A stretch of 64,000 bases of DNA from Syntrophales bacterium. Its GTDB lineage: Bacteria; Desulfobacterota; Syntrophia; Syntrophales; PHBD01. Made by a program: the position numbers and the translations under genes. This document shows positions 19,193-61,113 of this stretch, in pieces. The stretch's first letter is position 1. The number at the start of each line of letters is the position of its first letter. The notes under the pieces were generated by a model. The model saw only the letters and a program-made list of their open reading frames with translations, had not been told where the DNA came from and made no database searches. The DNA lies in NCBI GenBank assembly GCA_963668175.1, contig OY764159.1, forward strand, positions 256,001 through 320,000, given 5' to 3'.

Positions 19193-19215
19193 TCGACGAA
19201 GGATTGGGAAGCCCT

Positions 19216-21696: not shown

Positions 21697-21700
21697 GGGT

Positions 21701-22510
21701 ATGGCATTGAAGCTCGATATCTGCGGTCAGACGGACATAGGCCTCATCAGGCCCAACAACGAAGACAGCTTCCATATCGGCGAAAAGACGGGGCTCCTGG
21801 TCGTAGCGGATGGAATGGGCGGTCACGCATCCGGGGAAGTGGCCAGCCGTATGGCCGTCGATATCATCCAGAATTATTTTGAAAACAGGAAAGAGCCCCA
21901 ACCCTTCATCGGCACGTATCAGCCTGAATATTCGGAGGAGACAAACAGGCTGGGCGCGGCGATACGCCTGGCCAATATGGCGATCCACGATCTTTCGGAA
22001 TCGACACCCCATTATCACGGGATGGGCACAACGGTAGTCGCCGTCCTGATCAACGACCGTAAGATGAGCATCGCTCACGTAGGTGACAGCCGGGTCTATC
22101 TCATCAGGTCCCAGGATATCGAGCCGCTCACTGAGGACCACTCCGTGGCATATGAGCAGGTCAAGAAAGAGATGATATCGGCAGCGGAGGCGGCGGTATC
22201 CGAGATGAGAAACGTCTTGACCCGGGCTTTGGGGGTTCACGCTCAGGTTGATGTCGATCTCGGCGAGCTCACCCTGATGCCCGATGATCGTCTGGTTTTA
22301 TGCAGCGACGGCCTCTATTCCATGGTGCCGGATGACGACATTCTGGACGTCGTGATCTCGGCGGGCGAATCGTCCCAGGCCTGCCGAACGCTTGTCACAA
22401 TGGCGAATGAAAACGGCGGCCGCGACAATGTTACCGTGATTGCCGCGCACATCATAAAGAAAAATTGGTTTGCTTCCCTACTAAATATTATGAAATGCTT
22501 CAGGAGGTGA
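21701..22510 (+). CDS. PP2C-type Ser/Thr phosphatase (Stp1/IreP family)
   Basis: R..NED, VADGMGG, MGTT, HVGDSR, LTRALG, LCSDGL, GGRDNVT. Confidence 0.95.
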   Translation: MALKLDICGQTDIGLIRPNNEDSFHIGEKTGLLVVADGMGGHASGEVASRMAVDIIQNYFENRKEPQPFIGTYQPEYSEETNRLGAAIRLANMAIHDLSESTPHYHGMGTTVVAVLINDRKMSIAHVGDSRVYLIRSQDIEPLTEDHSVAYEQVKKEMISAAEAAVSEMRNVLTRALGVHAQVDVDLGELTLMPDDRLVLCSDGLYSMVPDDDILDVVISAGESSQACRTLVTMANENGGRDNVTVIAAHIIKKNWFASLLNIMKCFRR

Positions 22511-22513
22511 TAT

Positions 22514-23209
22514 ATGGCAAAGGTGTTGCTAAAGTTCAAAGACGCCTTGGTTAAGGAAATCCCGCTTGATAAGGATCTTATCACAATCGGCAGAAAGGCG
22601 GAGAACGACATTGCCGTCGACAATCAGGCTGTTTCCGGTTTTCATGCAAAGATCTTTAAAGATTCCGAAGGGTTTTCCGTCGAGGACTTGAACAGCCTGA
22701 ATGGCACCTTCGTCAACGGACAGAAAGTCGCCAAGACCCCTCTCAACAATGGCGACGTCATCCTCATCGGGGTTCATACACTGGAAGTCGTCGTAGAGCC
22801 GCGTAAAGGCATGGATGCTACGAAAGACCGGATCAGAGGCCGCTCCATGGATGAGACGATGGTCATCGATCCTAAGGACCAGCAGAAGATCATTGCCTCC
22901 ACCGAAAAGGTGGATGTCCTGGGCGGCTTCATCATCGTCGAAGGATCGTCGGAAAGAAAAGATTATGAGCTGAAAGACCGCGTCAGTACGATCGGCAAAG
23001 ACGACGGTGCCGTTATCCGCCTGAAGGGCTTTTTTGCCCCCCAGGTGGCCGCCCTCGTCAACCGGCGGAAGGAAGGGTACTTCATCAGTCCTTCGGGCGG
23101 GAAATCGATCAAGGTCAACGGCCGCGAGATCAGCAACCGTTATGACTTGAAAGACGGCGACGTCGTAGAAGTATCAGGACTGAAAATGCAGTTCTACATC
23201 AAAGAATAG
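22514..23209 (+). CDS. Tandem FHA-domain protein
   Basis: First FHA: IGR..NDI, VS..HA, DL.S.NGTFVNG. Second C-terminal FHA-like domain is degenerate. Confidence 0.9.
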   Translation: MAKVLLKFKDALVKEIPLDKDLITIGRKAENDIAVDNQAVSGFHAKIFKDSEGFSVEDLNSLNGTFVNGQKVAKTPLNNGDVILIGVHTLEVVVEPRKGMDATKDRIRGRSMDETMVIDPKDQQKIIASTEKVDVLGGFIIVEGSSERKDYELKDRVSTIGKDDGAVIRLKGFFAPQVAALVNRRKEGYFISPSGGKSIKVNGREISNRYDLKDGDVVEVSGLKMQFYIKE

Positions 23210-23219
23210 GGGGGACCGT

Positions 23220-23993
23220 ATGTCTAGAAACTGGCTGTTTCCGCTGATGGTGCTTTTCTTTGCATCGACACTAGGAGGCTGCGTCGCCAAGAGCGATTAT
23301 CTAAAGAAGGAAGCCGAGGCCACAGCCCTGGCGGACCAGGTGGCGAGTCTCTCCAAGGACAAGGAGAAATTGACCCAGGAGAAGAGCGATCTGGATAAGC
23401 TCCTGAACGCGAAAGCGGACGACCTGACCAAGGCGAACAGCGATCTGAGGTTTCGCAACGCCGATCTGGAAGCCCAGAACACAAAACTGAAGCAGGATTT
23501 GGCCGACCTCAAAAAGAAAGAGGCGGAAGTTCAGGCGGAAAGCAGCACCTACAAAGACCTGATGAAGGAGATGAAGTCGGAGATCGCCAAAGGACAGATT
23601 GCCATCAGCGAACTGAAAGGTAAACTGACGGTCGATGTGGCCAACCAGATTCTGTTTGCCTCCGGGGAGGCCGATGTTAAGAAAGACGGCCTGGCGATCC
23701 TGAAACGGGTCGTCGACATTCTCGCAACGGTGAAGGACAAGGCGATCCGCATTGAAGGGCATACCGATAACCAGAAGATATTCGGACAACTCGCCAAGAA
23801 GTATCCGACGAACTGGGAACTCTCAGCCGCGCGGGCCATCAATGTAACAAAATACCTGATCTCGCAGGGTATTCCGCCAGAGAATCTTTCTGCCGTCGCC
23901 TACGGGGAATTCAAACCGCTCGCAGACAACGCAACCCCCGAGGGACGTCAGAAGAACAGGAGAATCGCCATCATTCTGCTGCCGAAAGACTGA
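23220..23993 (+). CDS. OmpA/MotB family lipoprotein with coiled coil
   Basis: Lipobox LGGC, heptad coiled coil, ILFASG, IEGHTD, NWELSAARA, GRQKNRR. Confidence 0.9.
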   Translation: MSRNWLFPLMVLFFASTLGGCVAKSDYLKKEAEATALADQVASLSKDKEKLTQEKSDLDKLLNAKADDLTKANSDLRFRNADLEAQNTKLKQDLADLKKKEAEVQAESSTYKDLMKEMKSEIAKGQIAISELKGKLTVDVANQILFASGEADVKKDGLAILKRVVDILATVKDKAIRIEGHTDNQKIFGQLAKKYPTNWELSAARAINVTKYLISQGIPPENLSAVAYGEFKPLADNATPEGRQKNRRIAIILLPKD

Positions 23994-42827: not shown

Positions 42828-45800
42828 TTATACCTTGAAAGCGGTCAGGATAAGGAACCTTGCCGGGGTTTCGGATTCGGGCTCTGCAACGTCGAAGCCC
42901 TCAGCGGTTAATATCGCCATAACCTCTTCGTGTGAACGGACCACGGGTTTTATTCCCAAGAGCCTGTTTCGCAAGGCACTCAGCGTATCCCGCCTTGATA
43001 AATCCGTCGAAGACGTAGCGCGCTCCCGGATCAATAACATCCCTCCCGGTGCCAGGGATTCCCGAATTTTCCGCAGCGTCAGGCTAAATTCCTCATCGGA
43101 AAGAAGGTGGATGACGTCAAGAAGCAGCGCCGTATCCGCACCGCTTGGAAGATTGTCCAACGCCGGTGCTTTTCCCTGCACGGCGACACCCTGCTTTCCT
43201 ATTACCCGCGACGCGAAGAGTACCCGCTTCTTTTCGGGATCGACGGCATGAACCCGGGCGGCCGGATAAAGTTCAAGGAGCCAGGCGCAGGCCAATCCGT
43301 AGCCACATCCTATATCAAGGATAAGCCGGGGCGCTTTCACGTATTCGGACAAACAGCCGTAAAGGGGATCGAAGCGCATCCTGAGCCAGGCATGAAGTCT
43401 CGGGGAGGCCTCCATATGCCGGTAGCGTACCATGACGCGCTTGCGGTGCCGTTTCGATGCGGGGACAAGGTCCTGCTCCGGCGGGCAATCGAGCGGCCGG
43501 TATATCCTTTTCATGAGGGGGGGAACGATGGCGATTGCTCCGAGGAAAGAATAGCCTATACCCAGCGCCAGGCCGATACCCACGCTGCGGAGGAGAACAT
43601 GTCCCGATATGGCCAGTACCCCGAATCCCAAAAATGTCGTGGCAAAGGACATAAAGACGGACAGCCTGATGAGGCCCAGCGAAGGATGGTACTCGTCCAG
43701 GTACCGTTGATAGGAGCGGACCAGATAGAGGGCATAGTCCGTACCCATGCCGATGATGACGACCGATACCATGATCATCGGAATGCCCAGGGGTTCATTC
43801 AGGAGATTCAATGTCCCGACGGTGCAGACGAGGGCGAAAACCGTCGGGGCAACGGCGATAAGGGTCAACGGCAAATCCAGGAGATAAAGAAACGCAACGG
43901 CCAGTGTCATGATGCCCACAATCAGGGCCACTTTCAGAAATCCCGAAAAGATAAACGCTCCCAACCTTTCGCCGAAGAATGTCGGATCGAAGACCTTCAC
44001 GTCGGATAGCGCTCTTAAACGCGTGAAGAAGGATACGGGACGATACTCCGGGCCGGGCGTCAGGGTTGTAAAGAATGAAAGACCCTGTCCGTCGTGTTTG
44101 CGGGCAATGCCCAGAAGACTGAAATACTGTTCGGGAACGCCGACTGCGCGGTATTCCCGTTCGGCCAGCATGCTCAGAAAGGGATTAAAGGCCCCGGGTC
44201 TGAAGCCCGACTCCCGGGCAGCCCGTTCTATGTCGGCGGTCAACGCCGATACGCGCTCGGAAGACCAGAATTCCCGCCAGTCCCGGAAATTTTGTCGCGC
44301 CCTCTCTTCGCCCGGGAACAAAAGTGACGGCACGAACGACGCGGACAGGACTCCGTTCGCCTCTTCCCGGTCTAGTTGGAACGCCAGCCGGTCCGCCCGC
44401 CGCTGCAGGTCGGCCACGTCGCCCCCTTCCTGAATAAGGAAAACACGATTCGCGATACCGCCCCAGACATCTTTGACCAGCTTCTCGGCAGCCACCGTCT
44501 GGGCGCTGATGCTGTTCATGGCGTTCAAATCGATGCGTATATCGGGCCTGGCAAAAAAGAGCATCACAAAGGCAAAAAAGAGTGCCGCCCATAATTTCCA
44601 GGGGTGTTCCGACGATGAAACGGCATTGACCATACGCTGCAGGGGAATGAAACCGTCCCGCCGCGCGGGCGGAACGGAGGGAAAAACGAAGGGATAAATC
44701 AAATGGACAAAAACGAACGTGAAAAACACTCCCAAAGCGGCGAACCAGCCGAGCTGGGAAAGGGCGGCAAAGCCGCCGAGGAACAGAAAGGCGAAGCTGA
44801 CGGCCGTCGTCAGCATGGCCAGGAGCCCCAGGGACCAGACTTCCTTCGTGGCTTCCAATCCATGCGTTTCATAAGGGCGGTCCAGAAAAAGCAGGTAGGC
44901 GATGCCGTAATCGACGGTGAACGATATGATGGCGCCTCCGAAACCGACGGCCAGCATGGAAATCGTCCGGTTAAAGAGGGAATAGACGAACAGGGCGGCG
45001 ATCGTCCCCGCAAACGCCGGAAGAAGTGCAAGCAATCCGATCAGCGGCCGGGGAAAACCGAGAATCAGGAGGATGGCAATGGCCAGGGTGGAAAAGATGA
45101 CGGCCTGGCGGGTGTCTCTCTTGGCGCTCGTTTCATTGTCCAGCGCGGCCCGATAAGCGCCGACAGGCGTCAAGATAAAGGCATCGCTTTGTCCGTAAGC
45201 GTGCGCCAATTCGCTTGTAATGCCGTCCATGACGGCAGTTACTTTGCGGGCATAGGCGGTATCCGCTGCCGGCACGGCAGGTTCGGCGACGATCAGGAGG
45301 TGTTTCTTGTCGGGGGAGATGATCTGGCCCCTGTACATGTCTATCTGCCGGGAAGGGGCCAGAGGAGCGAGACGGGCCATGACGATGTTCTTTAATCCCA
45401 GGGGGTCTTGAGCCGTGAACCGGGACTGGCCGATACCCTCCAGGCTTGAAAGCTGCGCGAAATTGGTTCGAACGGCGTCGCGGATGTGTCGGGAGTCAAG
45501 AAGCGGCAAAACGCGTTCTCGAAGGTCTTTGGCCGTAAAGAGAACGGTAAGGTGATTCACGACATACGCCATCAGTTCGGGAACGAGGGCATACTGATCC
45601 TCCAGGCCCACGCGCTTGAACAGACCGCTATCCCGGAGCCGCTTCTCGACCAACGCCCCCCCGTCGACCAGCCTGTCGATATCGTCGCCCCGATGGGCGA
45701 CGTCGATCACGATGCGGTCCTGGATGGGATGATTCCGGACGATGTAGCGGGCATCGGCAAGGACCGGATCGCTTTGCGGCAGGGAAGCGGTAAGGTCGAA

Positions 45801-45902
45801 ATCCAGCGACAGGCGTCCGACGCTGAGAGAAAACAGCGACGCGACGACGATGATGACCGCGACAACCAAAGGCCAGCGGATCGAATACCGACTCAAAAAC
45901 AT
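42828..45902 (-). CDS. MMPL/RND-type exporter fused to a C-terminal class I SAM methyltransferase
   Basis: Two membrane blocks containing TVDY and GTDY, QDPLG in the soluble loop, C-terminal ILDIGCGYG and LDVIH. Confidence 0.85.
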   Translation of the reverse strand: MFLSRYSIRWPLVVAVIIVVASLFSLSVGRLSLDFDLTASLPQSDPVLADARYIVRNHPIQDRIVIDVAHRGDDIDRLVDGGALVEKRLRDSGLFKRVGLEDQYALVPELMAYVVNHLTVLFTAKDLRERVLPLLDSRHIRDAVRTNFAQLSSLEGIGQSRFTAQDPLGLKNIVMARLAPLAPSRQIDMYRGQIISPDKKHLLIVAEPAVPAADTAYARKVTAVMDGITSELAHAYGQSDAFILTPVGAYRAALDNETSAKRDTRQAVIFSTLAIAILLILGFPRPLIGLLALLPAFAGTIAALFVYSLFNRTISMLAVGFGGAIISFTVDYGIAYLLFLDRPYETHGLEATKEVWSLGLLAMLTTAVSFAFLFLGGFAALSQLGWFAALGVFFTFVFVHLIYPFVFPSVPPARRDGFIPLQRMVNAVSSSEHPWKLWAALFFAFVMLFFARPDIRIDLNAMNSISAQTVAAEKLVKDVWGGIANRVFLIQEGGDVADLQRRADRLAFQLDREEANGVLSASFVPSLLFPGEERARQNFRDWREFWSSERVSALTADIERAARESGFRPGAFNPFLSMLAEREYRAVGVPEQYFSLLGIARKHDGQGLSFFTTLTPGPEYRPVSFFTRLRALSDVKVFDPTFFGERLGAFIFSGFLKVALIVGIMTLAVAFLYLLDLPLTLIAVAPTVFALVCTVGTLNLLNEPLGIPMIMVSVVIIGMGTDYALYLVRSYQRYLDEYHPSLGLIRLSVFMSFATTFLGFGVLAISGHVLLRSVGIGLALGIGYSFLGAIAIVPPLMKRIYRPLDCPPEQDLVPASKRHRKRVMVRYRHMEASPRLHAWLRMRFDPLYGCLSEYVKAPRLILDIGCGYGLACAWLLELYPAARVHAVDPEKKRVLFASRVIGKQGVAVQGKAPALDNLPSGADTALLLDVIHLLSDEEFSLTLRKIRESLAPGGMLLIRERATSSTDLSRRDTLSALRNRLLGIKPVVRSHEEVMAILTAEGFDVAEPESETPARFLILTAFKV

Positions 45903-48354: not shown

Positions 48355-48867
48355 CTATATTTCTTCGCAGCAATGCCCTCCCTTGGAACGGCAGCCATTC
48401 TCCTTGGCCTTCTCAGCCAGTCTCGTTTCTCTTCTGGCACGCGCTTCTTCGTTGCGGCGCCGTTCGTTATCCGTCTCCAGGATCAGGGGCGGTAACTCCC
48501 GGGGCCGGCCGTCCTTGTCGATGGCCACATAGGTCAGATAAGCCGACGCCGTATGGCACCGCTTGCCCGTGATGAGATTTTCCGACTCGACGCGGACGCC
48601 GACCTCCATGGATGTCCTGCCGACGTAATTTAAGCTGGCTCTCATGGTCACATAATCTCCGACATAGACAGGATAGTGAAAATCCAGTCGGTCTATGGAA
48701 GCGGTAACGGCATTCGATCTTGCATGGCGGATCGCAACGACGCCCGCAATCGTATCGATGAGTTTCATGATCACACCGCCATGGACATTGCCCGCAGGAT
48801 TGGCATCAAGGGGATTCATCTGCTGGGCCATGACGACACTGCTTTCCTGTACTGTCTTACTTTCCAT
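48355..48867 (-). CDS. Acyl-CoA thioesterase (hotdog fold, YciA-like)
   Basis: DANPAGNVHGG, VTASID, GRTSMEVGV, YVAID..GRP. Confidence 0.93.
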   Translation of the reverse strand: MESKTVQESSVVMAQQMNPLDANPAGNVHGGVIMKLIDTIAGVVAIRHARSNAVTASIDRLDFHYPVYVGDYVTMRASLNYVGRTSMEVGVRVESENLITGKRCHTASAYLTYVAIDKDGRPRELPPLILETDNERRRNEEARARRETRLAEKAKENGCRSKGGHCCEEI

Positions 48868-48961
48868 CTAATAACTCCTTTGTAAAAAATGATTCATGGT
48901 AAATCATACAGGCAGATACGGCCATAGGCAACGAAAAATTATGGCCCTTCATCCTTGCGGC

Positions 48962-48999
48962 AAAAGGAAAGGGCCCCGTTGAAGGAACAGGGCCCTTTT
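48962..48999 (-). terminator. Rho-independent terminator after the PanE-BKACE fusion gene
   Basis: On the minus strand: AAAGGGCCC...GGGCCCTTT then CCTTTT; could act in both directions. Confidence 0.7.
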
Positions 49000-49019
49000 C
49001 ATTCCGAGATGACGTCTGC

Positions 49020-51020
49020 TTACTTTTTCAAGCCCAGGATTTCCCGGGTCTCATCGGGACTTGCCGGCTCAAAATCGAATTCGCGCATGATCCTGACCAT
49101 TTTTTCCACGAGTTCGCCGTTGTTTTTGGCGAAGACGCCCTTCTTTACAAACAGGTTGTCCTCCATGCCGACGCGGACATGGCTGCCCAGGAAAAGCCCC
49201 TGGGTACAGACGGGAAATTCATTTCGGCCGGCGCCGATGACGGACCATTGATAATTGCCCCTGCCGAAGATACGGTCGGCCGTCGTATTCAGACTGATCA
49301 GATCATAGGGGGTTGACTGGATCCCTCCCAGAATGCCCGTCACGAACTGCAAATAGACCGGCGGTTTCAGATAACCCGCCTGCAGAAGGTAGCCGCAGTT
49401 GTAGAGATGGCCGATGTCATAGACCTCCAACTCGGGCTTCGTTCCGTTTTCCGCCATGATGGAGGTCATTTTAAAAAGATCCGCAAACGTATTCTGGAAG
49501 ACATATCCTTTGGCCAGCTCCATCATGGCCCCTTCCCAGGGATATTTCAGTTCCGTGTATTTCTCGATCATGGAAAAGACGCCCCAGTTCATCGATCCCA
49601 GGTTGCACGATGCCAGCTCCGGTTTGAACCGGGGAATGACCGACGCCCGCTGTTCCACCGTCATGCCGGCACCGCCGCCCGTCGTGATGCAGATGATCAG
49701 GTCCTTGTTCTTCGCTCTTATCTTGTCGATGATCTGTTCAAAGACATTGAGATCCGCCACGGGCATACCGTCCTGGGGATTGCGGGCATGGATATGCACG
49801 ACGGCCGCACCGGCAGCGGCCGCATCCAAGGCGTTCTGGGCGATCTGATCGGGTGTTATGGGCAGATAATCGGACATGGATGGCGTGTGAATGGAACCCG
49901 TAATGGCGCAGGTCACAATCCGCTTATGGTACGGTATCTTGCTCTTGGCCGGCCGGGATGCAGGCGCCGCTGCGGCAGGTTTGGCGGCCGTTTCCGCCGG
50001 ACCATCGGGAATATCAGGCAGGACGAACATCTCCAGGTTGGCCATGGCCGGCTTCAATTTGCCGTCCTGGCAGGCGGTGACGATCTCCACGACTTTGTCG
50101 TTGACCGGCGTCTTCACCTTGGCCTTTCGTCCCATCTCCGCCACTTTCCCGTTGATCGTGTTGATTTCGCATGGCAGCCCTTTTTCCAGGTCCTGAAGCA
50201 TGCTCGCCTTAAGTGCCCGATGCGGACCGAAAGCCATCTGGTAAATCATGAACGTCTTCTGCAACTGCTGCTTGTTCTGGAAAGAAAGGATGCCTACGTC
50301 AACGCCCTGAATCGGCTCCGGTTTGATGCCGAGGGCGGATGTCACCTGGAGGCATTCATTGGCGATGTGGGCCACGCAGGCCAGGGCTTTCGGGTTATCG
50401 AGAATATCCCCATAGGTGCAGCCCAATGCTGCAGACATGCCGCTGAACGTAGAATTGACAAGGAGCTTGGTCCAACGGATGCCTATCAATTTATCGGTCG
50501 TGATGGGCACGCCGGCCGACTCCAGCACTTCCTTGACCTTCTGCAGCCGCTCCGTCATTTTGCCGTCCAGTTCCCCGATATCATAGGTCATTTTGTCCGC
50601 CGGGGACGTCAACTGCGACACGCCGGGGGCCATCCAGGTGGCTCCCCAGCCAACGGCGGCTCCGAGGGTTCTCTGCGCGCCGACGTATTCGGCTACCGCA
50701 TCTTCAGGCAACCCGTTCTGAAGGGTGAGAACGATGCTGTCCTTGTGCAGATGAGGAACGAGCGCCGTCAGGGCCGCATCATTGTAATTCGTCTTTACCA
50801 GGTACAAGACCAGGTCGAATGTCCCTTCCATTTGGGCGGGTAAAATCGCCTTGACGGGGACGGTCATTTCCAGAAATCCGGTAATTTGGGCGCCTTTTTC
50901 GTTCAGAGCTTTCACATGAACTTCATTGGCATCGACCAGCACCACATCACGACCGCCCTTTGTCAGCATGGCCCCAATAATCGTCCCCAATGATCCTGCA
51001 CCAACTACTGCAATCTTCAT
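49020..51020 (-). CDS. Fusion protein: ketopantoate-reductase (PanE/ApbA)-like domain + beta-keto acid cleavage enzyme (BKACE/Kce, DUF849)
   Basis: N-half: GAGSLG, LQNG, WTKLLVN, SMLQD..G...E...ING. Pro/Ala linker. C-half: VTCAITG, HIHAR, KPELE.YD.GH, VRVGMEDN. ATG at 51020 follows GGAG. Confidence 0.9.
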   Translation of the reverse strand: MKIAVVGAGSLGTIIGAMLTKGGRDVVLVDANEVHVKALNEKGAQITGFLEMTVPVKAILPAQMEGTFDLVLYLVKTNYNDAALTALVPHLHKDSIVLTLQNGLPEDAVAEYVGAQRTLGAAVGWGATWMAPGVSQLTSPADKMTYDIGELDGKMTERLQKVKEVLESAGVPITTDKLIGIRWTKLLVNSTFSGMSAALGCTYGDILDNPKALACVAHIANECLQVTSALGIKPEPIQGVDVGILSFQNKQQLQKTFMIYQMAFGPHRALKASMLQDLEKGLPCEINTINGKVAEMGRKAKVKTPVNDKVVEIVTACQDGKLKPAMANLEMFVLPDIPDGPAETAAKPAAAAPASRPAKSKIPYHKRIVTCAITGSIHTPSMSDYLPITPDQIAQNALDAAAAGAAVVHIHARNPQDGMPVADLNVFEQIIDKIRAKNKDLIICITTGGGAGMTVEQRASVIPRFKPELASCNLGSMNWGVFSMIEKYTELKYPWEGAMMELAKGYVFQNTFADLFKMTSIMAENGTKPELEVYDIGHLYNCGYLLQAGYLKPPVYLQFVTGILGGIQSTPYDLISLNTTADRIFGRGNYQWSVIGAGRNEFPVCTQGLFLGSHVRVGMEDNLFVKKGVFAKNNGELVEKMVRIMREFDFEPASPDETREILGLKK

Positions 51021-51459
51021 ATCTCCTACCTCCCCCATGATCAATTTGCTAAACCTACAGGCCCCACGCTCACTCCGTGACGCCAGGGTTCTCCCGATCC
51101 CACATCACCCATCTTGCAGACTGCAAGAGGGGTCACCAAAATTATGAAACGGCCAGACTTTAAAACAGAAGAAGTACGGATACGGCCTTAAGTGGCAGTC
51201 GCCGTTCTGCAATGTAAAATAAATGTTGAAGGACGATCGATAGTGATCTTTGCTTCTGATCGCCTGAATCATAGGCTAATATATATCCTGTTAAAAAGCA
51301 ATTGTTGATGGATGGGCATTTTCTCATGCGCCGCATGCCCTGGCTGCATTACCGGTGACCGCGCAAATCTTCAGCCGGATCAGATGTTTGGTATTGTATT
51401 TTCCATAAATAGTGTGATAATTTACAGACTTTCTGGCACTGAACCCTGAGGAAAACGCC

Positions 51460-52626
51460 TTGCCCTTGAAATCGATGACGCAGATGCACCCTGAAAAACT
51501 TACTTGGACGGTCTCGGCCGAGGGACAACAGGGCGAGGCATGTACCGTTTTCCTCTCCGGCGATGTCGCTTTGAAAAGTATCCTGCAGATTCACTCCCGT
51601 CTATTGAGAATAACGGAAGATATAAAGCCGCAAAGCATTACCGTGGACCTCTCCGGGGTCCGCTATCTGGACAGCAACGGCGCCTTGATCCTGCTCAAGT
51701 ACCGGGACTCTCTGGAAAAAAGAGCGATACCCACACAATTCGTGCATATGACCGACGACGCCGCCAGGATATTCGGTCTTCTCGATTTCCGACACCTGAA
51801 GGCCGCTGCCGCACCCTATCCCGCAGATCATCCCGGTTTTTTCATCCGCGTCGGCGTTATAGGCAGACGCGCATATGCGGGCTTCGTTCTTTTAATGATA
51901 TTTGTCGGGGAAGTCATCAGCAGTTTGATATACTCCGCCCGGCATCCCCGCTCCATAAGATGGGACGCCGTCTTTTTGTACATGAAAAGGGCAGGCGTCG
52001 ACGGGCTCCCGATCGTCGGATTGATCAGTTTTTTGATCGGGCTGATCATGGCGTTCATGTCTTCACTTCAGTTGAGACAATTCGGAGCCAATATCTACGT
52101 TGCGTCACTCGTGGCGCTCGCCATTGTGAAGGAACTGGGCCCCATCATGACGGCCATCCTTGTCGCCGGCCGGTCCGGTTCTGCCTTCGCAGCAGAAATA
52201 GGCACCATGATGGTCAATGAAGAAGTGGACGCCTTAACGACCATGGGATTTGATTCAACCAGGTTTCTCGTTATCCCCAAGGTGCTGGCCTCTGTCGTTG
52301 TCGTGCCGATGTTGACCGTCTATGCCGATGTCATCGGTGTCCTGGGGGGACTTGTCGTCGGCGTCACGGGCTTGGATTTGACCTTTTCTTCGTATGTCAA
52401 ACAGACGATGTCCAGCATCAAGGTCTTCGATATCGGTTCAAGCCTTGTCAAGTCGGTATGCTTCGCACTACTTATTTCGGGAATCGTATGCCATCGCGGT
52501 TTTCAAGTGAGGGGCGGCGCCGAAGCGGTCGGGGAAGCGGCAACGAGCGCCGTCGTCTCTGCCATTTTCCTGATCATTGTGTGTGATTCCGCTTTTGCGA
52601 TTATGCTCCACTACATAAGGGCTTGA
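51460..52626 (+). CDS. mlaE: MlaE family ABC permease with N-terminal STAS domain
   Basis: STAS motif DLSGVRYLDS.GA; KELGP..TA, AGRSGS..AAEIG.M, TSAVV. Confidence 0.9.
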   Translation: MPLKSMTQMHPEKLTWTVSAEGQQGEACTVFLSGDVALKSILQIHSRLLRITEDIKPQSITVDLSGVRYLDSNGALILLKYRDSLEKRAIPTQFVHMTDDAARIFGLLDFRHLKAAAAPYPADHPGFFIRVGVIGRRAYAGFVLLMIFVGEVISSLIYSARHPRSIRWDAVFLYMKRAGVDGLPIVGLISFLIGLIMAFMSSLQLRQFGANIYVASLVALAIVKELGPIMTAILVAGRSGSAFAAEIGTMMVNEEVDALTTMGFDSTRFLVIPKVLASVVVVPMLTVYADVIGVLGGLVVGVTGLDLTFSSYVKQTMSSIKVFDIGSSLVKSVCFALLISGIVCHRGFQVRGGAEAVGEAATSAVVSAIFLIIVCDSAFAIMLHYIRA

Positions 52627-52649
52627 ACAGAATCCAATGGGGTGATTGC

Positions 52650-53423
52650 TTGATCGATTCTCAGCATAAGGCCGTTATCACCGTCGACGGCTTATCCGCT
52701 TCATACGGCGACAAGAAGGTTCTCGACAACGTCAGCTTCAGCGTTTTTCAAGGCGAAATATTCGTCGTCGTTGGCGCCAGCGGCTGCGGGAAATCGACCC
52801 TTTTGAAGTATTTGATCGGCCTTTACCGGCCGAAGACAGGAAAGGTCATCGTCCAGGATTTCGATCTCGGCACAGCCGACGACGAACAGCTCCAGAGGTT
52901 CAAAGCAGGCATCGGCGTTCTTTTCCAGTCCAGCGCACTCATCGGCTCCATGACGCTGGGGGAGAACATCGCTCTGCCCCTGCGTCACCACACGGACCTC
53001 CCTCCGGACATGATCGACATGATCGTCAAGATGAAACTGGAACTGGTCAATCTTTCAGGGTACGAAGATTATCTTCCCTCGGAACTGTCCGGAGGTATGC
53101 GCAAAAGGGCGGGGCTGGCCAGGGCCATGGCCATGGACCCGACGATTCTTTTTTTCGATGAGATGTCGGCGGGACTTGACCCAGTCACCGCCGTGGAATT
53201 GGATATCATGGTGAAGGATATCAACAAGGGCATGGGAACGACCATGGTCGTCGTCACCCATGAACTGGAATCGATTTTTACCATCGCCCATCGGGTGATC
53301 ATGCTTGATACGGAAACACGGGGAATCATCGCCGACGGCGACCCCAAAGAGCTGAAGAAGAATGCGACGGACCTGCGGGTCGTCAACTTTTTTAACCGCC
53401 GGGCTGCCGGTTCGTCGGATTAG
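52650..53423 (+). CDS. mlaF: MlaF family ABC ATP-binding protein
   Basis: GASGCGKS, LSGGMRKR, FFDE..AGLDP, VTHEL; start codon uncertain (TTG 52650 chosen). Confidence 0.9.
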   Translation: MIDSQHKAVITVDGLSASYGDKKVLDNVSFSVFQGEIFVVVGASGCGKSTLLKYLIGLYRPKTGKVIVQDFDLGTADDEQLQRFKAGIGVLFQSSALIGSMTLGENIALPLRHHTDLPPDMIDMIVKMKLELVNLSGYEDYLPSELSGGMRKRAGLARAMAMDPTILFFDEMSAGLDPVTAVELDIMVKDINKGMGTTMVVVTHELESIFTIAHRVIMLDTETRGIIADGDPKELKKNATDLRVVNFFNRRAAGSSD

Positions 53424-53453
53424 CGTTCCATCGTTGGTTACAGGAGGTTGAAA

Positions 53454-54386
53454 GTGGCCAGAGAAAAGACCTCAAAATTCGTCATCGGAATTTTCATAAC
53501 AGGGGCCATCATCATTACCGTGATCGCCGTCATCTGGCTTGGCGCCTCTCACTTTTTCGAAAAGGGCACCCGTTATGTCACCTATTTCGACGAATCCGTG
53601 CAGGGCTTGAATCCCGATTCAACTGTTAAGTATCGCGGCGTCGACATCGGCAGGGTCGAGAAAATCTCGGTGGCTCCGGACAAGAAGCTTGTGGAAGTTG
53701 TCATGAAAATCGATCTCAGTCCGGACAACGCCCGTCAAACTTACGCCCAGCTGAAAACCGCAGGACTGACGGGTATCGTGTTCATCGACCTCGACCGCCA
53801 GGACAGGAAGAACATGATCACCCAGCCTCCCTTGACTTTTGATGCGCCCTATCAGGTGATCTACTCCCGTCCTTCCACGACAACGCAGATTCTGGCCGGC
53901 ATAGACGTCATCCTCTCCAAGACCAAGGACCTCGACCTAAAGGGCATTTCCGACGAGGTCAAGACGGTTCAAAAGGCCCTGGCCGAATTCCTGTCGGGCC
54001 CGAGGACGAAAAGCATCATCGCCAATGTCGACGCCACTGCTCAGCATTTGAACAACACGTCCAGAAATATCGACCGGATCGTCGCCGAAAGCGGGATCGA
54101 TTCGATCCTAGCCGATACCAGGAAGACCGTTGCGGAGATGCGCTTGTTGATGACCACCATAAGGAAAGACGTCGAGGCGTTGCACATTGCCGAGACAGCG
54201 GCCAAGGCCGGGCGCATGGTCGATGGGCTGGATAAAAAAACGAAGGAGATTACGGCCGATATCAAGATAACCGCTGAAAATCTAAAGCAGGCATCGGCCA
54301 ATCTCGACCTTCTGGTTGAGGAGCTTCAGGCCAATCCCTCGGAGATTCTCTTCAGCAAACCGCCGCCACCTAGATCGAAGAGGTGA
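53454..54386 (+). CDS. mlaD: MlaD/MCE family protein
   Basis: N-terminal TM helix, SVQGL...S.VKYRGV.IG.V, helical C-terminus; GTG at 53454 follows GGAGG. Confidence 0.9.
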   Translation: MAREKTSKFVIGIFITGAIIITVIAVIWLGASHFFEKGTRYVTYFDESVQGLNPDSTVKYRGVDIGRVEKISVAPDKKLVEVVMKIDLSPDNARQTYAQLKTAGLTGIVFIDLDRQDRKNMITQPPLTFDAPYQVIYSRPSTTTQILAGIDVILSKTKDLDLKGISDEVKTVQKALAEFLSGPRTKSIIANVDATAQHLNNTSRNIDRIVAESGIDSILADTRKTVAEMRLLMTTIRKDVEALHIAETAAKAGRMVDGLDKKTKEITADIKITAENLKQASANLDLLVEELQANPSEILFSKPPPPRSKR

Positions 54387-54389
54387 AAC

Positions 54390-55079
54390 ATGGAATACGG
54401 AAAACGATTTTCAGCCGAACCTACCAAACATATATCGCTCCCTTTCCGAAAACGGAAGAGGGCGGCCCTCATTTGGACGGCGGTCATTCTCCTTCTCCTT
54501 ACGGGTTGCGTCGCCGGCGGAAAAGCTCCCATCGTGATCGACCAGTATATTCTAGAGTATCCGCCCCCCGCGCTTAAGGAAAGCGAACCGGTAGACCAGG
54601 TCGTGTCGGTGGGACGATTTGCCGTCGCCCAGGCCTTCAATACGCCCATGATGGTTTACCGCACGGGACCTTACGAATACTACACGGACTATTACAACCG
54701 CTGGCGGGTCAACCCGGGAGATATGGTGACGGACTATCTTCTGCGCGATCTGAAACGATCAGGCCTGTTTAAGGCCGTTTTCTCTTACAGGGATACAGAA
54801 GATGCGCGTTTTCTCATCCAGGGCAACATTGAAGATTTTCTCGGGAGCAGAGAGGGCGGCAGAAACGAAGCTATCCTGACCGTCTATATCACGATGCTCG
54901 ACACATCGCAAAAAGAGGCCACCAAGAGGGTCGTCTTCCAGAAACGGTATCGGCATGTCCGGATTCTCGATAACGATTCGGCCGTCGGTCTCGCCAAAGG
55001 CATGAGCGAGGCCATGGAAGCCATTTCGAAAGAAGCCTTGAAGGATATTGTCACCTTTGCACGTCAAGTCAAGCCGTAA
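54390..55079 (+). CDS. ABC-transport auxiliary lipoprotein (PqiC-like)
   Basis: Lipobox LLTGC, Y.L, RW...P; fourth gene of the MCE operon. Confidence 0.8.
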   Translation: MEYGKRFSAEPTKHISLPFRKRKRAALIWTAVILLLLTGCVAGGKAPIVIDQYILEYPPPALKESEPVDQVVSVGRFAVAQAFNTPMMVYRTGPYEYYTDYYNRWRVNPGDMVTDYLLRDLKRSGLFKAVFSYRDTEDARFLIQGNIEDFLGSREGGRNEAILTVYITMLDTSQKEATKRVVFQKRYRHVRILDNDSAVGLAKGMSEAMEAISKEALKDIVTFARQVKP

Positions 55080-58628: not shown

Positions 58629-60197
58629 TCAGTCCTCTTTCGGGGGAGGCAACAGAAGCTGACTGTCCTTATCCCTGCTTTCTCCCACCCGTACGACCGC
58701 TACGGCCGGGCTGCCGATCACGGGACATTTGGTTTCACAAATACCGCAGCCGACGCACAAGTCGAGATCGATATGGGGCTGCTTGACGACGACGCGCTTC
58801 CCCTCCCTCGTGGACACCGTAACCGTCTCGAACCAGATGGCCTTCTTCCCCGTGGGACAGACCTCCTCGCAGACGATGCAGGGCGTGCCATGGGCATAGG
58901 GAAGGCAGCGGTTTTTGTCGATCATGGCCAGACCGATCTTGATCTTTTCCTTTTCGGGAATGGTCAGTCGCTTGATGGCTCCCGTAGGGCAAACCTGACC
59001 GCAGAGGGTGCAATGGTATTCGCAATAGCCGATTCTGGGGATCAGGATCGGCGTCCAGAGGCCTTCCAGGCCGGCCTCCAGGAATGCCGGCTGCAGGCCG
59101 TTGGTGATGCAGACCTTCATACATTCCCCGCATTTGACACACCTCCGGAGAAACTCCTTCTCCTGCTGTGCTCCCGGAGGCCTTATCAGGTGCGGTCCGG
59201 CAACGCCCGTTTTGGCCAGGGGCGTAATGTGCAGGAGCGGGACCGCCGCCACGCCAGAGGCCACCGATCCGATGAGGCGCCGTTTACCCAAGTCGACGGA
59301 AGCCGGGGACACCTTTTTCGCAAGCGAAAAGACGACGGCTTTCTTTGGGCATAAATCATCGCAATCCATGCATACCAGACATTCCGCCTTCTTCCACCGG
59401 GTCGGATCTCCGGGGAGCGCACCGCCCTGACAGGCCGCTTCGCAAAGGCCGCAATCGTTGCAGCCTTCGCTCACCGTTCTGTTCACGACGGCATAGCGCG
59501 AACATATGCCCAAGAGCGCCCCCAACGGGCACAAGTACTTGCACCAGAAGCGCCTTTCCCAAAAATTCAAGGCGAGGAGCGCGAAAAAGATGAGACCGGT
59601 GAAAACGCCCTGCAGGTAAAAAGGCTGCTCGAAGGGAAGGAATGCCCTTTTCATGAAACCGTAAAGCCAATCGGAGGCCCCGGATAACACGGGTATATTC
59701 CACCCGTAAAGGACATCAAATGTGTCCTTGATGCCGTAGCTTATAAGCGGATAGACGGACAACGACAGAGAGCGGATCAAGAGAGACAGAGGATCGACGA
59801 CTCCTGTCATGTGGAGAGTGAACAGGGAAGATACAACAAGAAAGATCAAGATAAGATATTTTAACCAATACCAGTTCCTGGGTGCGGCGTCTTTCCTGAT
59901 CCGCATTTTTTTCAATGAACCGACAATGTTGTGGAGTGTGCCGAAGGGGCACACCCACCCGCAGAAAAAGCGGCCGAAAATAACCGTTGCCAGCAGGACA
60001 AGGGCTGCCAGGAACGACAGGTTCTCGAAAGAACGCGTCCCCAAAATGGTTGTTATCGCAATCAGAGGGTCGGCGTCGAGGAAGATCTTGACAGGGTAGC
60101 CAAGTTCGTTTGCTCCCTTGGATTCGGTCTGGAGGAAAAGCCATAGGAAAACGAGGAGAAAAAGCGCCTGCGAGGCTATACGCGTTTTTCTTAACAT
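58629..60197 (-). CDS. Membrane polyferredoxin (NapH/MauN-like + NapG/MauM-like domains)
   Basis: GRFFCGWVCP, RFWCKYLCP, RPPGA, and multiple CxxCxxCxxxCP motifs. Confidence 0.9.
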   Translation of the reverse strand: MLRKTRIASQALFLLVFLWLFLQTESKGANELGYPVKIFLDADPLIAITTILGTRSFENLSFLAALVLLATVIFGRFFCGWVCPFGTLHNIVGSLKKMRIRKDAAPRNWYWLKYLILIFLVVSSLFTLHMTGVVDPLSLLIRSLSLSVYPLISYGIKDTFDVLYGWNIPVLSGASDWLYGFMKRAFLPFEQPFYLQGVFTGLIFFALLALNFWERRFWCKYLCPLGALLGICSRYAVVNRTVSEGCNDCGLCEAACQGGALPGDPTRWKKAECLVCMDCDDLCPKKAVVFSLAKKVSPASVDLGKRRLIGSVASGVAAVPLLHITPLAKTGVAGPHLIRPPGAQQEKEFLRRCVKCGECMKVCITNGLQPAFLEAGLEGLWTPILIPRIGYCEYHCTLCGQVCPTGAIKRLTIPEKEKIKIGLAMIDKNRCLPYAHGTPCIVCEEVCPTGKKAIWFETVTVSTREGKRVVVKQPHIDLDLCVGCGICETKCPVIGSPAVAVVRVGESRDKDSQLLLPPPKED

Positions 60198-60204
60198 GAG
60201 CCGC

Positions 60205-61113
60205 TTAGAGGTTGATTCGCTTGATTTTCATTTTGGATACGTTCATGTTGCCTAATCGCCTCTGCTGGCCGACCCTGACGCAACCGAGGGTCCCCTCCTT
60301 CATTCCGAAGAGGGTCGTTCCATAGGCGTCCACGGCTACCTGATCGCGGCCGGCGACTATCGTATCGAGACGTTTGACATCGGGAAGCCACCCGCCCTGG
60401 GGTCCGTTTGCCGTCAGAATCCGGACGGCATCCAGCACGACCAGTGCCGGCTTAAAAAAAACAGCCAGATCGACGAGGCATTCGTCGATATTCTGGTGGA
60501 GCCGGCCCCGTGAACCTCCGATAACGCCCATCCAGTTCTTCATGCCGAGCGTCAGCGTGGAAAGGCTGTGGTGCTTCGCAATAGGGACGTTGATCACCTT
60601 ATCGGCCTCAACGACTTCCGTATAAACGGGCCATGTTTTGAGAATCTGGCCGTTGACCTTCATCTCACGGTATTTGCGGTCATCCATGTAACCGACCTCG
60701 GCGCCGGCCTTGGCCGCCGCATCGGCAATGCCGCTTTGTTTATAGGTCCGGCGGGCATCATTGACGCTGTGATCGAATACTTTTACCTTCTTGGCCCCCG
60801 CTTCCAGGCACAGTCCGATCAGGGCGGCCACCACTTCAGGATTGGTCGTGGCCGCATACTCCGGAGTCCTGTCCCAGCCGATATTCGGTTTGATGACCAC
60901 GACATCGCCCCGGGAGATGAACTTACCGATTCCACCCAGGCCATCGATAGCGGCCCGGACAGTCCGGGTTGGGGCGGGCCCGCGAGCCACGGCAAGGTCC
61001 GAAGGATCGGCGGCATGCAGGATGCCGGCAAGAGGCGAAAGCCCGTCGGGAATCGATAAGGCCGCACCGGTTATCATAGCCGTTTTTAAAAATTCTCTGC
61101 GCTTCATCGTCAT
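60205..61113 (-). CDS. DUF362 protein with Tat signal
   Basis: KRREFLK twin-arginine signal; V.IKPN, TNP.VV, P..K.H, TL.MKN.MG, D.VAVD. Confidence 0.88.
   Translation of the reverse strand: MTMKRREFLKTAMITGAALSIPDGLSPLAGILHAADPSDLAVARGPAPTRTVRAAIDGLGGIGKFISRGDVVVIKPNIGWDRTPEYAATTNPEVVAALIGLCLEAGAKKVKVFDHSVNDARRTYKQSGIADAAAKAGAEVGYMDDRKYREMKVNGQILKTWPVYTEVVEADKVINVPIAKHHSLSTLTLGMKNWMGVIGGSRGRLHQNIDECLVDLAVFFKPALVVLDAVRILTANGPQGGWLPDVKRLDTIVAGRDQVAVDAYGTTLFGMKEGTLGCVRVGQQRRLGNMNVSKMKIKRINL

Follow-up and report, generated by a model that had tools for sequence, protein, structure and literature searches.

[quoted passage not shown] Its open reading frame is single and unbroken from 49020 to 51044 and opens at TTG; because every homolog in the alignment begins at MKIA, we place the start at the ATG at 51020, giving a product of 666 residues (49020..51020). 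Pfam resolves this product into an ApbA domain of the NAD(P)-binding Rossmann type (residues 3-141; 50598..51014; PF02558, 100 bits, E 1e-28), an ApbA_C helical domain (residues 179-316; 50073..50486; PF08546, 98 bits, E 6e-28) and a BKACE TIM barrel of the ~310-residue subfamily (residues 367-664; 49029..49922; PF05853), the last a full-length family match (profile positions 2-274 of 274, 345.8 bits against a gathering score of 24.8, E 2e-103). Alignment and motif coordinates set off a 19-residue linker rich in Pro, Ala and Ser between the two halves (residues 340-358; 49947..50003), so that the first-pass annotation, which had described both enzymes in one frame around a Pro/Ala linker, was correct on this point. 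It was also right that a hotdog thioesterase follows on the same strand: a gene of 170 codons (48355..48867; Pfam 4HBT, E 1e-21) lies 153 nt beyond the fusion. In the gap, 22 nt past the fusion stop codon and likewise on the minus strand, RNA folding predicts a candidate intrinsic terminator (48968..48998), a 13-bp hairpin with seven G-C pairs followed by CCUUUU.

Both halves retain the motifs of their families. The Rossmann domain carries GAGSLG (7-12), an Asp30 that closes strand 2, and LQNG (100-103), and the helical domain carries K185 (in WTKLLVN), N189 and E285 (in CEIN). When aligned with the solved KPRs 3hwr, 5hws, 5ayv and 2ew2, N102 (of LQNG), K185 and E285 are the same residues, and all three are invariant across 15 aligned fusion proteins; on the basis of structural work on the E. 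coli KPR, we take this Asn/Lys/Glu set to be catalytic. The BKACE half contains HIH (409-411), R616 and GMED (618-621), in which H409, H411, R616, E620 and D621 are invariant across the same 15 proteins, and the matching positions H49, H51, R256 and D261 vary little or not at all among 46 BKACE sequences. The His-x-His and Glu presumably form the zinc site, with the neighbouring Arg and Asp beside it, roles that we carry over from the structure paper on Kce. One zinc ion per active site is described for BKACE15 in the available text of PMC11961710. A joint alignment of the fusions with single-domain homologs was dropped (N-domain homologs were misaligned, at 10-14% identity), and the halves were aligned separately. 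An AlphaFold2 model of the whole fusion, built on a 15-row alignment, gave pLDDT below 50 across residues 342-368, the linker region, with a mean pLDDT of 67, a pTM of 0.54 and most of the BKACE half below 60; because this model is too poor, we make no statement on domain packing. A complex prediction of the BKACE half with the PanE-like half, made from separate alignments and run without controls, returned no answer (score 0.00, mark 0.32) and neither favours nor disfavours binding.

If the junction were an assembly artefact, as had been considered for this locus, the same architecture would not be expected to recur. Of 17 related genome loci, nine (L001-L009), all from separate Syntrophales assemblies, hold the fusion with its linker length kept, which argues firmly against an artefact; one copy, in L008, ends at residue 654 with its contig. 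Six full-length protein clusters, at 76-96% identity, also contain it, the closest (P0003, 96%) lying on a 52.9-kb contig. Both halves are strongly conserved among fusions and the linker varies freely, its length being constant and its sequence variable among 14 close relatives. A distant protein, P0107, has the same architecture, although its halves are merely 34% and 25% identical to those of the window.

The BKACE half matches the structures 3lot, 3e49 and 8rio/8rip end to end, the alignment with BKACE15 of Paracoccus denitrificans (8rio/8rip) scoring 267 bits, and its predicted reaction is the conversion of a beta-keto acid and acetyl-CoA to acetoacetate and an acyl-CoA. It falls under every equivalog cutoff among the families listed. 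The nearest NCBIfam model, the equivalog NF053538 for 3,5-dioxohexanoate:acetyl-CoA acetone transferase / triacetate acetoacetate-lyase, gives 392.9 bits against a cutoff of 430; the relatives L010-L016 score 380-416, and a Paracoccus BKACE adjacent to a PanE-like gene passes (522 against 430). That Paracoccus protein, considered as the crystallised BKACE15, is instead a paralog of it (364 bits). A Kce-type model, of a family marked by a Glu that binds a 5-amino group, gives only 237.4 bits against a cutoff of 382. Two positions past a conserved Thr-Gly, Ile in the window protein stands against Glu in the Kce-like row P0163, a column that we take, by Kce numbering, to be that of Glu14. The binding of the substrate 5-amino group by Glu14 is described in the accessible part of PMC10470551, and that of PMC11961710 describes BKACE15 as a homotetrameric zinc enzyme active on neutral C5-C6 beta-keto acids. 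Our best guess at the substrate of the fusion is accordingly a neutral acid in the C5-C6 range, examples being 3-hydroxyhexanoate, 3-hydroxyvalerate and 3-hydroxy-5-oxohexanoate. Membership in the phloroglucinol pathway was considered and dropped: NF053538 is below cutoff, and a search of the window and L001-L009 for phloroglucinol reductase and the ring-opening dihydrophloroglucinol cyclohydrolase found no SDR or cyclase gene. Among the loci scanned, only L011 has a cyclase beside its BKACE.

Annotation pipelines label proteins such as the N-terminal half 2-dehydropantoate 2-reductase. Its likeness to PanE/ApbA (EC 1.1.1.169; 3hwr, 5hws/5ayv, 2ew2) lies in the two-domain fold by Pfam, the Rossmann motif and the aligned Asn/Lys/Glu, and it passes the broad subfamily model TIGR00745 (180.2 against 141.35). 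It differs from the solved KPRs in scoring only ~95 bits against the best structure and in carrying an insertion of ~18 residues in the ApbA_C domain. Among the best 25 of 37 families, it falls below all equivalog KPR models (136.4 against 500, 124.3 against 252, 112.7 against 382 and 100.6 against 371) and below the subfamily-type PRK06522 models (139.2 against 371 and 127 against 223). Neither the window nor any locus scanned has panB, panC or panD beside the fusion, and the gene neighbours of the subfamily are catabolic. From these comparisons, the PanE-like half is probably an NAD(P)-dependent hydroxy-acid dehydrogenase and not the ketopantoate reductase of the pantothenate pathway. Because the subfamily (~335-350 residues) retains in alignments the KPR-type Asn/Lys/Asn/Ser/Glu set, chemistry at the 3-position is in doubt; to our knowledge, the substrates of characterised KPR-family members are 2-oxo or 2-hydroxy acids rather than 3-hydroxy acids. 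Our literature search found no assayed enzyme of this subfamily, no paper pairing BKACE (DUF849) with ketopantoate reductase and nothing on the Paracoccus accessions, and the available main text of the NetSyn preprint contains none of the terms ketopantoate, dehydropantoate and ApbA. The founding BKACE study, reportedly that of Bastard et al. in 2014, may already mention PanE-like neighbours.

The surroundings of the fusion are richer in its relatives than in the window. Directly upstream of the fusion, six of the nine related loci carry a GntP/CitMHS-like permease together with a further dehydrogenase, of the 3-hydroxyacyl-CoA dehydrogenase (3HCDH) family, and in most relatives the fusion closes an operon of the order sensor/regulator, permease, 3HCDH-family dehydrogenase, fusion. 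The window copy lacks this upstream permease and dehydrogenase, and its neighbours include neither a transporter nor a regulator nor any further gene of the pathway.

The evidence that the two activities belong together comes from relatives in which they are separate genes. About 60 standalone PanE-like homologs were found, and gene context was read for a handful of subfamily members. In Sedimentibacter (L015) and a Ruminococcaceae bacterium (L017), a BKACE gene is followed by a separate PanE-like gene at 48% and 52% identity, respectively, to the fusion N-domain. A survey of plasmids returned 103 matching records, 12 of them at 44% identity or more, and in each of the five examined from these 12 the immediate neighbour on the same strand encodes an enzyme with a beta-keto acid as substrate; in the group at 37% identity or less, neither of the two records examined has such a neighbour. 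On a plasmid of Paracoccus denitrificans PD1222, a symporter, a PanE-like gene and a BKACE gene follow in order with overlapping stop and start, and an AraC-type regulator adjoins the genes PDEN_RS22575-22585; two Priestia records have the order BKACE, PanE-like gene, GntP permease; and in Bacillus mycoides and Niallia taxi an acetoacetate decarboxylase, passing NF002614 in both, precedes the PanE-like gene. In a tree of N-domains, the fusion N-domains and the PanE-like proteins adjacent to BKACE or acetoacetate decarboxylase form one subfamily, with the Burkholderia type outside. A PanE-like neighbour is absent beside the closest standalone BKACEs (L010, L012 and L013, 75-78% identity).

Dehydrogenase partners appear, moreover, to be interchangeable. 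L014 and L015 have sister BKACEs (support 100/94) of 78% identity, and the operons of the two loci are alike in make-up, each with a sigma-54 activator, a CoA-transferase and a GntP permease; yet the partner is a 3HCDH-family dehydrogenase in L014 and a PanE-like protein in L015. The Paracoccus BKACE is similarly sister to P0020, a BKACE-SDR fusion (support 98/89). Because the minimal operons of transporter, PanE-like gene and BKACE in Paracoccus, Priestia and Sedimentibacter hold no other dehydrogenase, the PanE-like protein is there the sole candidate producer of the beta-keto acid. This adjacency of split genes and exchange of partners, rather than anything in the window itself, make it most likely that the two halves are coupled as the first-pass annotation had proposed, with the PanE-like half supplying a keto acid to BKACE.

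We therefore favour, with somewhat better than even confidence, a bifunctional catabolic enzyme in which the PanE-like half oxidises a free hydroxy acid and the BKACE half cleaves the resulting beta-keto acid. The NAD(P)-dependent PanE-like domain would oxidise a free, probably 3-hydroxy, acid to the beta-keto acid, and the zinc-dependent BKACE domain would convert this and acetyl-CoA to acetoacetate and acyl-CoA. Because acetyl-CoA is used on the beta-keto acid, the acyl part would gain its CoA without ATP, and fusion could hold the labile beta-keto acid beside the enzyme that consumes it. How the domains are arranged, that their motifs are conserved, that the fusion recurs and that adjacency of the PanE-like subfamily to beta-keto-acid enzymes is conserved are direct observations; in which direction and at which position the dehydrogenase works, any channelling and the substrate are inferences.

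Acetoacetate is the one metabolite common to both kinds of neighbour, BKACE making it and acetoacetate decarboxylase using it, and it is possible to envisage the PanE-like domain acting on the product side, where it would interconvert acetoacetate and 3-hydroxybutyrate and thereby clear an inhibitory BKACE product or feed a decarboxylase, another dehydrogenase making the beta-keto acid. Acetoacetate does inhibit BKACE15 (IC50 1.45 mM), and its removal is flagged as a bottleneck by the authors in the available text (PMC11961710). Because a 3HCDH-family dehydrogenase is already upstream in six of the nine loci, and could alone supply the beta-keto acid as in L014 and as this family does in the phloroglucinol pathway (available text of PMC10470551), the fused domain may in these loci have another role. 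Nevertheless, we regard a product-side role as unlikely, because the Paracoccus, Priestia and Sedimentibacter operons make do without another dehydrogenase, and because in the exchange between L014 and L015 a PanE-like gene takes the place of the dehydrogenase that forms the beta-keto acid.

The thioesterase invites a further comparison, with carnitine catabolism in Pseudomonas, where the cdhCAB genes of the caiX-cdhCAB-hocS system supply a dehydrogenase, a BKACE and a thioesterase. As in such a three-enzyme module, the downstream hotdog enzyme would hydrolyse the acyl-CoA product; it is on the same strand and 153 nt away, and a homolog of 80% identity occurs 3 kb downstream, past an autotransporter gene, in L006, the locus that also has the closest BKACE half (92%). 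In the available flanks of the other eight fusion loci, this homolog is absent (downstream coverage was the full 10 kb in L001, L003, L007 and L009; in L002, L004, L005 and L008 it was shorter), and no other 4HBT protein was found among the 80 flank ORFs scanned. The thioesterase is far under the YciA cutoff (61 bits against 162), and a promoter-like site, its own ribosome-binding site and the hairpin with its U-tract part it from the fusion. The first-pass annotation had called this hairpin a terminator, which is plausible but not proven, since the version that a consensus scan caught has just 5 pairs, and terminator-like sites are fewer than in shuffled sequence (2 against a mean of 3.9). 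Moreover, a hydrolysed acyl-CoA would mean that the activation gained without ATP is lost to no purpose, except where the acid is itself the product wanted. Membership of the thioesterase in the system, once claimed for it, is thus doubtful, and a three-enzyme module is quite improbable.

A further reading, in which the N-domain would be a usual ketopantoate reductase serving pantothenate synthesis and the fusion would have no metabolic logic, fits the pipeline names, the retained KPR-type residues and the TIGR00745 match, but the failed equivalog models, the lack of neighbouring pan genes in the window and loci scanned, the repeated adjacency of the subfamily to BKACE or acetoacetate decarboxylase, transporters and catabolic-type regulators, and the shared architecture of the distant P0107 leave it with very little probability.

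Returning to the bifunctional enzyme, it is a speculative thought that the two dehydrogenases in the operons of its relatives take opposite enantiomers, or two hydroxyls, of one imported acid. More broadly, and tentatively, since we would not rate the whole as likely, the PanE-like subfamily could comprise unrecognised R-specific beta-hydroxy-acid dehydrogenases that complement the S-specific 3HCDH family. With BKACE, they would give anaerobes and soil bacteria an ATP-free activation of free (R)-3-hydroxyalkanoates (e.g., polyhydroxyalkanoate monomers) or of polyketide-derived hydroxy acids, with the Syntrophales fusion channelling its intermediate and the two-dehydrogenase operons taking both enantiomers. 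ATP-free CoA activation matters for energy-limited syntrophs, and the ability of BKACE pathways to turn carboxylic acids into CoA thioesters without ATP is presented in the accessible part of PMC11961710 as relevant to synthetic pathway design. Should the PanE-like half prove to be a dehydrogenase of beta-hydroxy acids, its family would be the third to partner BKACE, after 3HCDH and SDR, and many genes labelled as pantothenate biosynthesis would be misannotated. The natural fusion is a one-polypeptide, two-step catalyst that can be directly expressed and screened, and the genetically tractable P. denitrificans PD1222 has the split form.

Although the locus had been described as a candidate new catabolic pathway, its novelty lies in the family of the dehydrogenase and in the fusion; the scheme of dehydrogenase plus BKACE is established, in the texts available, for phloroglucinol (PMC10470551), deoxyribonate (bioRxiv 10.1101/205583) and carnitine (the cdhCAB operon; PMC5806209). 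As far as the first two of these sources extend, every characterised BKACE pathway includes a neighbouring dehydrogenase that takes a free hydroxy acid. In the anaerobic phloroglucinol pathway of Clostridium scatologenes (PMC10470551, in part), the NAD(P)+-dependent dehydrogenase TfD oxidises a free 3-hydroxy acid and feeds TAL, a BKACE-family enzyme that yields acetoacetate and acyl-CoA, and the TAL reaction is that of NF053538, the nearest model of the window BKACE half. A TfD-like 3HCDH-family gene is what stands directly upstream of the fusion in six of nine relatives; however, TfD is a separate protein of the 3-hydroxyacyl-CoA dehydrogenase family, whereas the window dehydrogenase is PanE-like and fused, in loci devoid of the phloroglucinol reductase and ring-opening cyclase sought. 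The deoxyribonate system (bioRxiv 10.1101/205583, in part), in which an SDR dehydrogenase oxidises a free 3-hydroxy acid that is then cleaved with acetyl-CoA, and the carnitine system (PMC5806209, in part) follow the same two-step logic and are each clustered with a transporter, but their dehydrogenases are SDR or 3HCDH enzymes encoded as separate proteins, and their substrates are polar or charged. BKACE15 (8RIO/8RIP/9HNF; PMC11961710, in part) belongs to the same ~310-residue subfamily as the window half and is a standalone protein where the window BKACE is fused. A precedent for fusing BKACE to the enzyme of an adjacent step is the bifunctional 3-aminobutyryl-CoA ammonia lyase/Kce (NF052389, against which the window protein scores 171, cutoff 725); in that case BKACE is joined to a hotdog-fold lyase that acts after cleavage, whereas its partner in the Syntrophales protein is a Rossmann dehydrogenase.

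The fusion occupies an uninterrupted open frame on the minus strand (49020..51044), and because MKIA begins every homolog in the alignment, the true start is set at the ATG at 51020, which gives 666 residues. Pfam recognizes ApbA (residues 3-141), ApbA_C (179-316) and a complete BKACE (beta-keto acid cleavage enzyme) domain (367-664; E 2e-103), and the linker quoted in the first-pass annotation corresponds to residues 340-358 (window 49947-50003, minus strand); the description given there, of two complete domains joined by a linker in one frame, agrees with both Pfam and the ORF scan. Its claim that the PanE Lys/Glu and BKACE HIH/GMED motifs are intact is likewise borne out: K185, E285 and N102 of the PanE-like half match the same residues of four solved ketopantoate reductases (KPRs), and these three, together with HIH (409-411) and GMED (618-621), are invariant in 15 aligned fusion proteins. 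Their catalytic or zinc-binding roles we take to be those of the KPR and Kce literature. An Asp ending the second Rossmann strand goes, as a general rule, with NAD rather than NADP, and Asp30 at that position hints at NAD. The G+C content around the gene is that of the remaining window. The CORE-cycle paper (PMC11961710) describes BKACE as a homotetramer with one Zn per active site.

A genome scan with the fusion returned 17 related loci: nine contain the same fusion at 83-86% identity (that of L008 ends early at a contig end), in two, neighbouring separate genes specify BKACE and a PanE-like protein, and six encode BKACE with no PanE-like partner. The possibility raised at first pass, that the junction is an assembly artefact, is ruled out by the nine loci, which come from separate assemblies labelled Syntrophales, Syntrophaceae or 'delta proteobacterium', and by the linker, which in 14 close fusions keeps its length and drifts in sequence between two tightly conserved domains. 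A word-indexed protein search yielded 29 matches, including six full-length clusters of the same architecture (662-668 aa, 76-96% identity; one labelled 'Firmicutes bacterium') and four fragments of it. An exhaustive search of 1.84 billion representatives gave 16,661 matches, and among the 150 best only two were relevant to the fusion: P0032, a 282-aa fragment crossing the junction, and P0107, 687 aa long, in which Pfam recognizes all three domains. Because the halves of P0107 share only 34% and 25% identity with those of the window and form long branches outside its subfamilies in both trees, P0107 probably arose by a separate fusion event. Overall the architecture is rare, its close form being confined to one clade. 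Other PanE-like fusions are P0028, P0029, P0131 and P0152, two of which combine an amidase with ApbA (728-790 aa); the other two, PanE-like proteins of 521-534 aa, have about 190 C-terminal residues with no Pfam match and group with the distant P0107 in the N-domain tree.

The thioesterase had been counted as part of the system, with a terminator between the genes. A 4HBT thioesterase gene (170 aa; 48355-48867; Pfam) does follow on the minus strand after a gap of 153 nt, but the link is not supported, in that, within the available flanks, a homolog accompanies the fusion only in the window and in one of nine relatives (L006, in the order fusion, autotransporter, thioesterase 80% identical to that of the window, FGGY kinase). 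RNA folding places a 13-bp hairpin followed by CCUUUU 22 nt past the fusion stop codon; the hairpin and U-tract are present but rated weakly by a consensus terminator scan, which detected no excess of terminator-like sites. The tblastn match to the L006 homolog covers residues 1-129 only, and the C-terminal tail of the window protein (about 40 residues; 48355-48480, minus strand) is highly charged and then Cys-rich. Upstream of the fusion lies a divergent Mla-type ABC operon (51460-55079), whose MlaE-type permease (51460-52626, plus strand) has an N-terminal STAS domain; downstream are the thioesterase and unrelated genes, and the remaining window is housekeeping. The window ORFs scanned included no transporter, regulator, 3HCDH, SDR, cyclase, second ApbA or pan gene. 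Elsewhere, a 1024-aa ORF (42828-45902, minus strand) shows an unusual combination of transporter and methyltransferase, with an MMPL-like membrane region (residues 659-798) and a C-terminal SAM-dependent methyltransferase domain (about 852-1003); a signalling cluster (19204-23993, plus strand) encodes, in a row, a CHASE2-Ser/Thr protein kinase, a PP2C phosphatase, an FHA-domain protein and an OmpA-family protein; and a conserved-looking pair (58629-61113, minus strand) consists of a DUF362 protein and a protein of 522 aa that is rich in 4Fe-4S binding motifs.

The relatives have a richer setting. In six of nine loci (L002, L003, L004, L005, L008, L009) the fusion closes a same-strand array of PAS histidine kinase, LuxR-type regulator, GntP/CitMHS-like permease and 3HCDH-family dehydrogenase, the last of which has as its best NCBIfam models 3-hydroxyacyl-CoA dehydrogenase (PRK06129) and L-carnitine dehydrogenase, none of them reaching its cutoff. 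Right before the L001 fusion, at 9757-9882, lie 42 residues left over from the N-terminus of the PAS histidine kinase (88% identity): L001 looks like a deletion variant in which the regulator, permease and second dehydrogenase are gone and the fusion is retained, and L007 looks the same.

Unfused PanE-like proteins of this subfamily also occur beside enzymes that use beta-keto acids. Sedimentibacter L015 encodes BKACE, a PanE-like protein (48% identical to the fusion N-domain), a butyryl-CoA:acetate-CoA-transferase-like protein, a GntP permease and a sigma-54 activator, and Ruminococcaceae L017 encodes BKACE (at the contig start), a PanE-like protein (52%) and a thiolase. The N-domain has 103 matching records in a plasmid collection, 12 of them at 44% identity or more, and context was viewed for five of the 12. 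Plasmid 1 of P. denitrificans PD1222 has a divergent AraC regulator beside a sodium:solute symporter, PanE-like protein and BKACE, the last two genes overlapping by 8 bases; plasmids of Priestia aryabhattai and P. megaterium encode a LacI regulator, BKACE (283 aa), PanE-like protein and GntP permease; and those of Bacillus mycoides (L020, 6243-8035) and Niallia taxi (L021, 4240-6038) carry, beside a divergent LysR regulator, an acetoacetate decarboxylase (ADC) that passes NF002614 and then a PanE-like gene, a pair that resembles a unit of two genes for turning a hydroxy acid into a ketone. Two records viewed from the group at 35-37% identity (Paraburkholderia, Burkholderia) have another context, of VOC, MaoC, CoA-transferase and shikimate dehydrogenase. 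In the N-domain tree the fusions form one clade (100/99), nested in a subfamily to which each of the six BKACE- or ADC-adjacent proteins belongs; the Burkholderia type falls outside. Every subfamily member with visible context, six standalone proteins plus the fusions, adjoins or is fused to an enzyme with a beta-keto acid as substrate or product.

The BKACE half belongs to a subfamily of about 310 aa with an extra segment not in Kce-like enzymes, and aligns end to end with 3lot, 3e49, 3e02 and BKACE15 (8rio/8rip). Its best NCBIfam model, the 3,5-dioxohexanoate enzyme, gives 392.9 bits where the cutoff is 430; the seven clade relatives scored are also all below that cutoff (380-416 bits), and the Paracoccus PanE-adjacent BKACE is above it (522). 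Because the clade has Ile after the Thr-Gly motif where the Kce-like sequence has Glu, an amino-substituted substrate is argued against. The nearest standalone BKACEs (L010, L012, L013; 75-78% identity) end clusters resembling beta-oxidation, with AMP-ligase, acyl-CoA dehydrogenase, thiolase-like proteins and MaoC, which fits an aliphatic acyl-CoA product. Those of L010 (2884-10924) and L013 (3276-10924) contain two thiolase-like proteins, DUF35/ChsH2-type OB proteins, acyl-CoA dehydrogenase and AMP-ligase, with MaoC in L010 only; in the BKACE tree their BKACEs join the fusion P0008 with weak support (80/68), so these could have arisen by fission. In L011 (Desulfocucumis MAG, 420-2195) a cyclase-family (PF04199) gene directly precedes BKACE, as in the phloroglucinol cluster, and this BKACE, at 416, stays below the 430 cutoff of the triacetate-lyase model; the contig start truncates what may be a cluster of the phloroglucinol type. 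Neutral C5-C6 acids are the favoured candidate substrates.

The main rival to coupled oxidation has the fused domain reducing acetoacetate, which potently inhibits BKACE (PMC11961710); this fits the ADC-adjacent cases well but fits the minimal operons of transporter, PanE-like protein and BKACE poorly. Under coupled oxidation, the PanE-like half would oxidize a free hydroxy acid to the beta-keto acid used by the BKACE half, and it is gene context alone that suggests oxidation at C3. The KPR-family enzymes known to us act at C2, and the subfamily retains the KPR residue set in alignment. The KPR product is (R)-pantoate. CsTfD prefers (S)-3-hydroxybutyrate (PMC10470551), and where a 3HCDH-family enzyme is already present, as in the six Syntrophales operons, the fused domain might act on the opposite enantiomer or might instead oxidize a second hydroxyl group.

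The dehydrogenase partner appears exchangeable. Fusibacter L014 (sigma-54 activator, CoA-transferase, GntP, BKACE, 3HCDH-family dehydrogenase) has the make-up of L015 except for the dehydrogenase family, PanE-like in the latter, and their BKACEs are sisters (100/94) with 78% identity; P0020 is a BKACE-SDR fusion, and its BKACE half is the sister (98/89, 65% identity) of the PanE-adjacent BKACE from Paracoccus. The simplest reading, by analogy, gives the PanE-like protein the slot that 3HCDH or SDR dehydrogenases hold beside BKACE. Context upholds the coupling of the two halves proposed at first pass, though not its thioesterase link or its 'new catabolic pathway': the dehydrogenase plus BKACE module is already known, and the fusion is a rare fused variant of it. 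PanE-like dehydrogenases are not linked to this module in the literature searched, a set without Bastard et al. 2014, and the fusion offers a clean, directly testable lead for re-annotating a sizeable subfamily labelled 'ketopantoate reductase'. In the characterized pathways a neighbouring dehydrogenase oxidizes the free hydroxy acid to the beta-keto acid; that enzyme is the 3HCDH-family TfD in the phloroglucinol system (PMC10470551) and an SDR in the deoxyribonate system (bioRxiv 10.1101/205583), whereas here the candidate for that role is PanE-like and fused.
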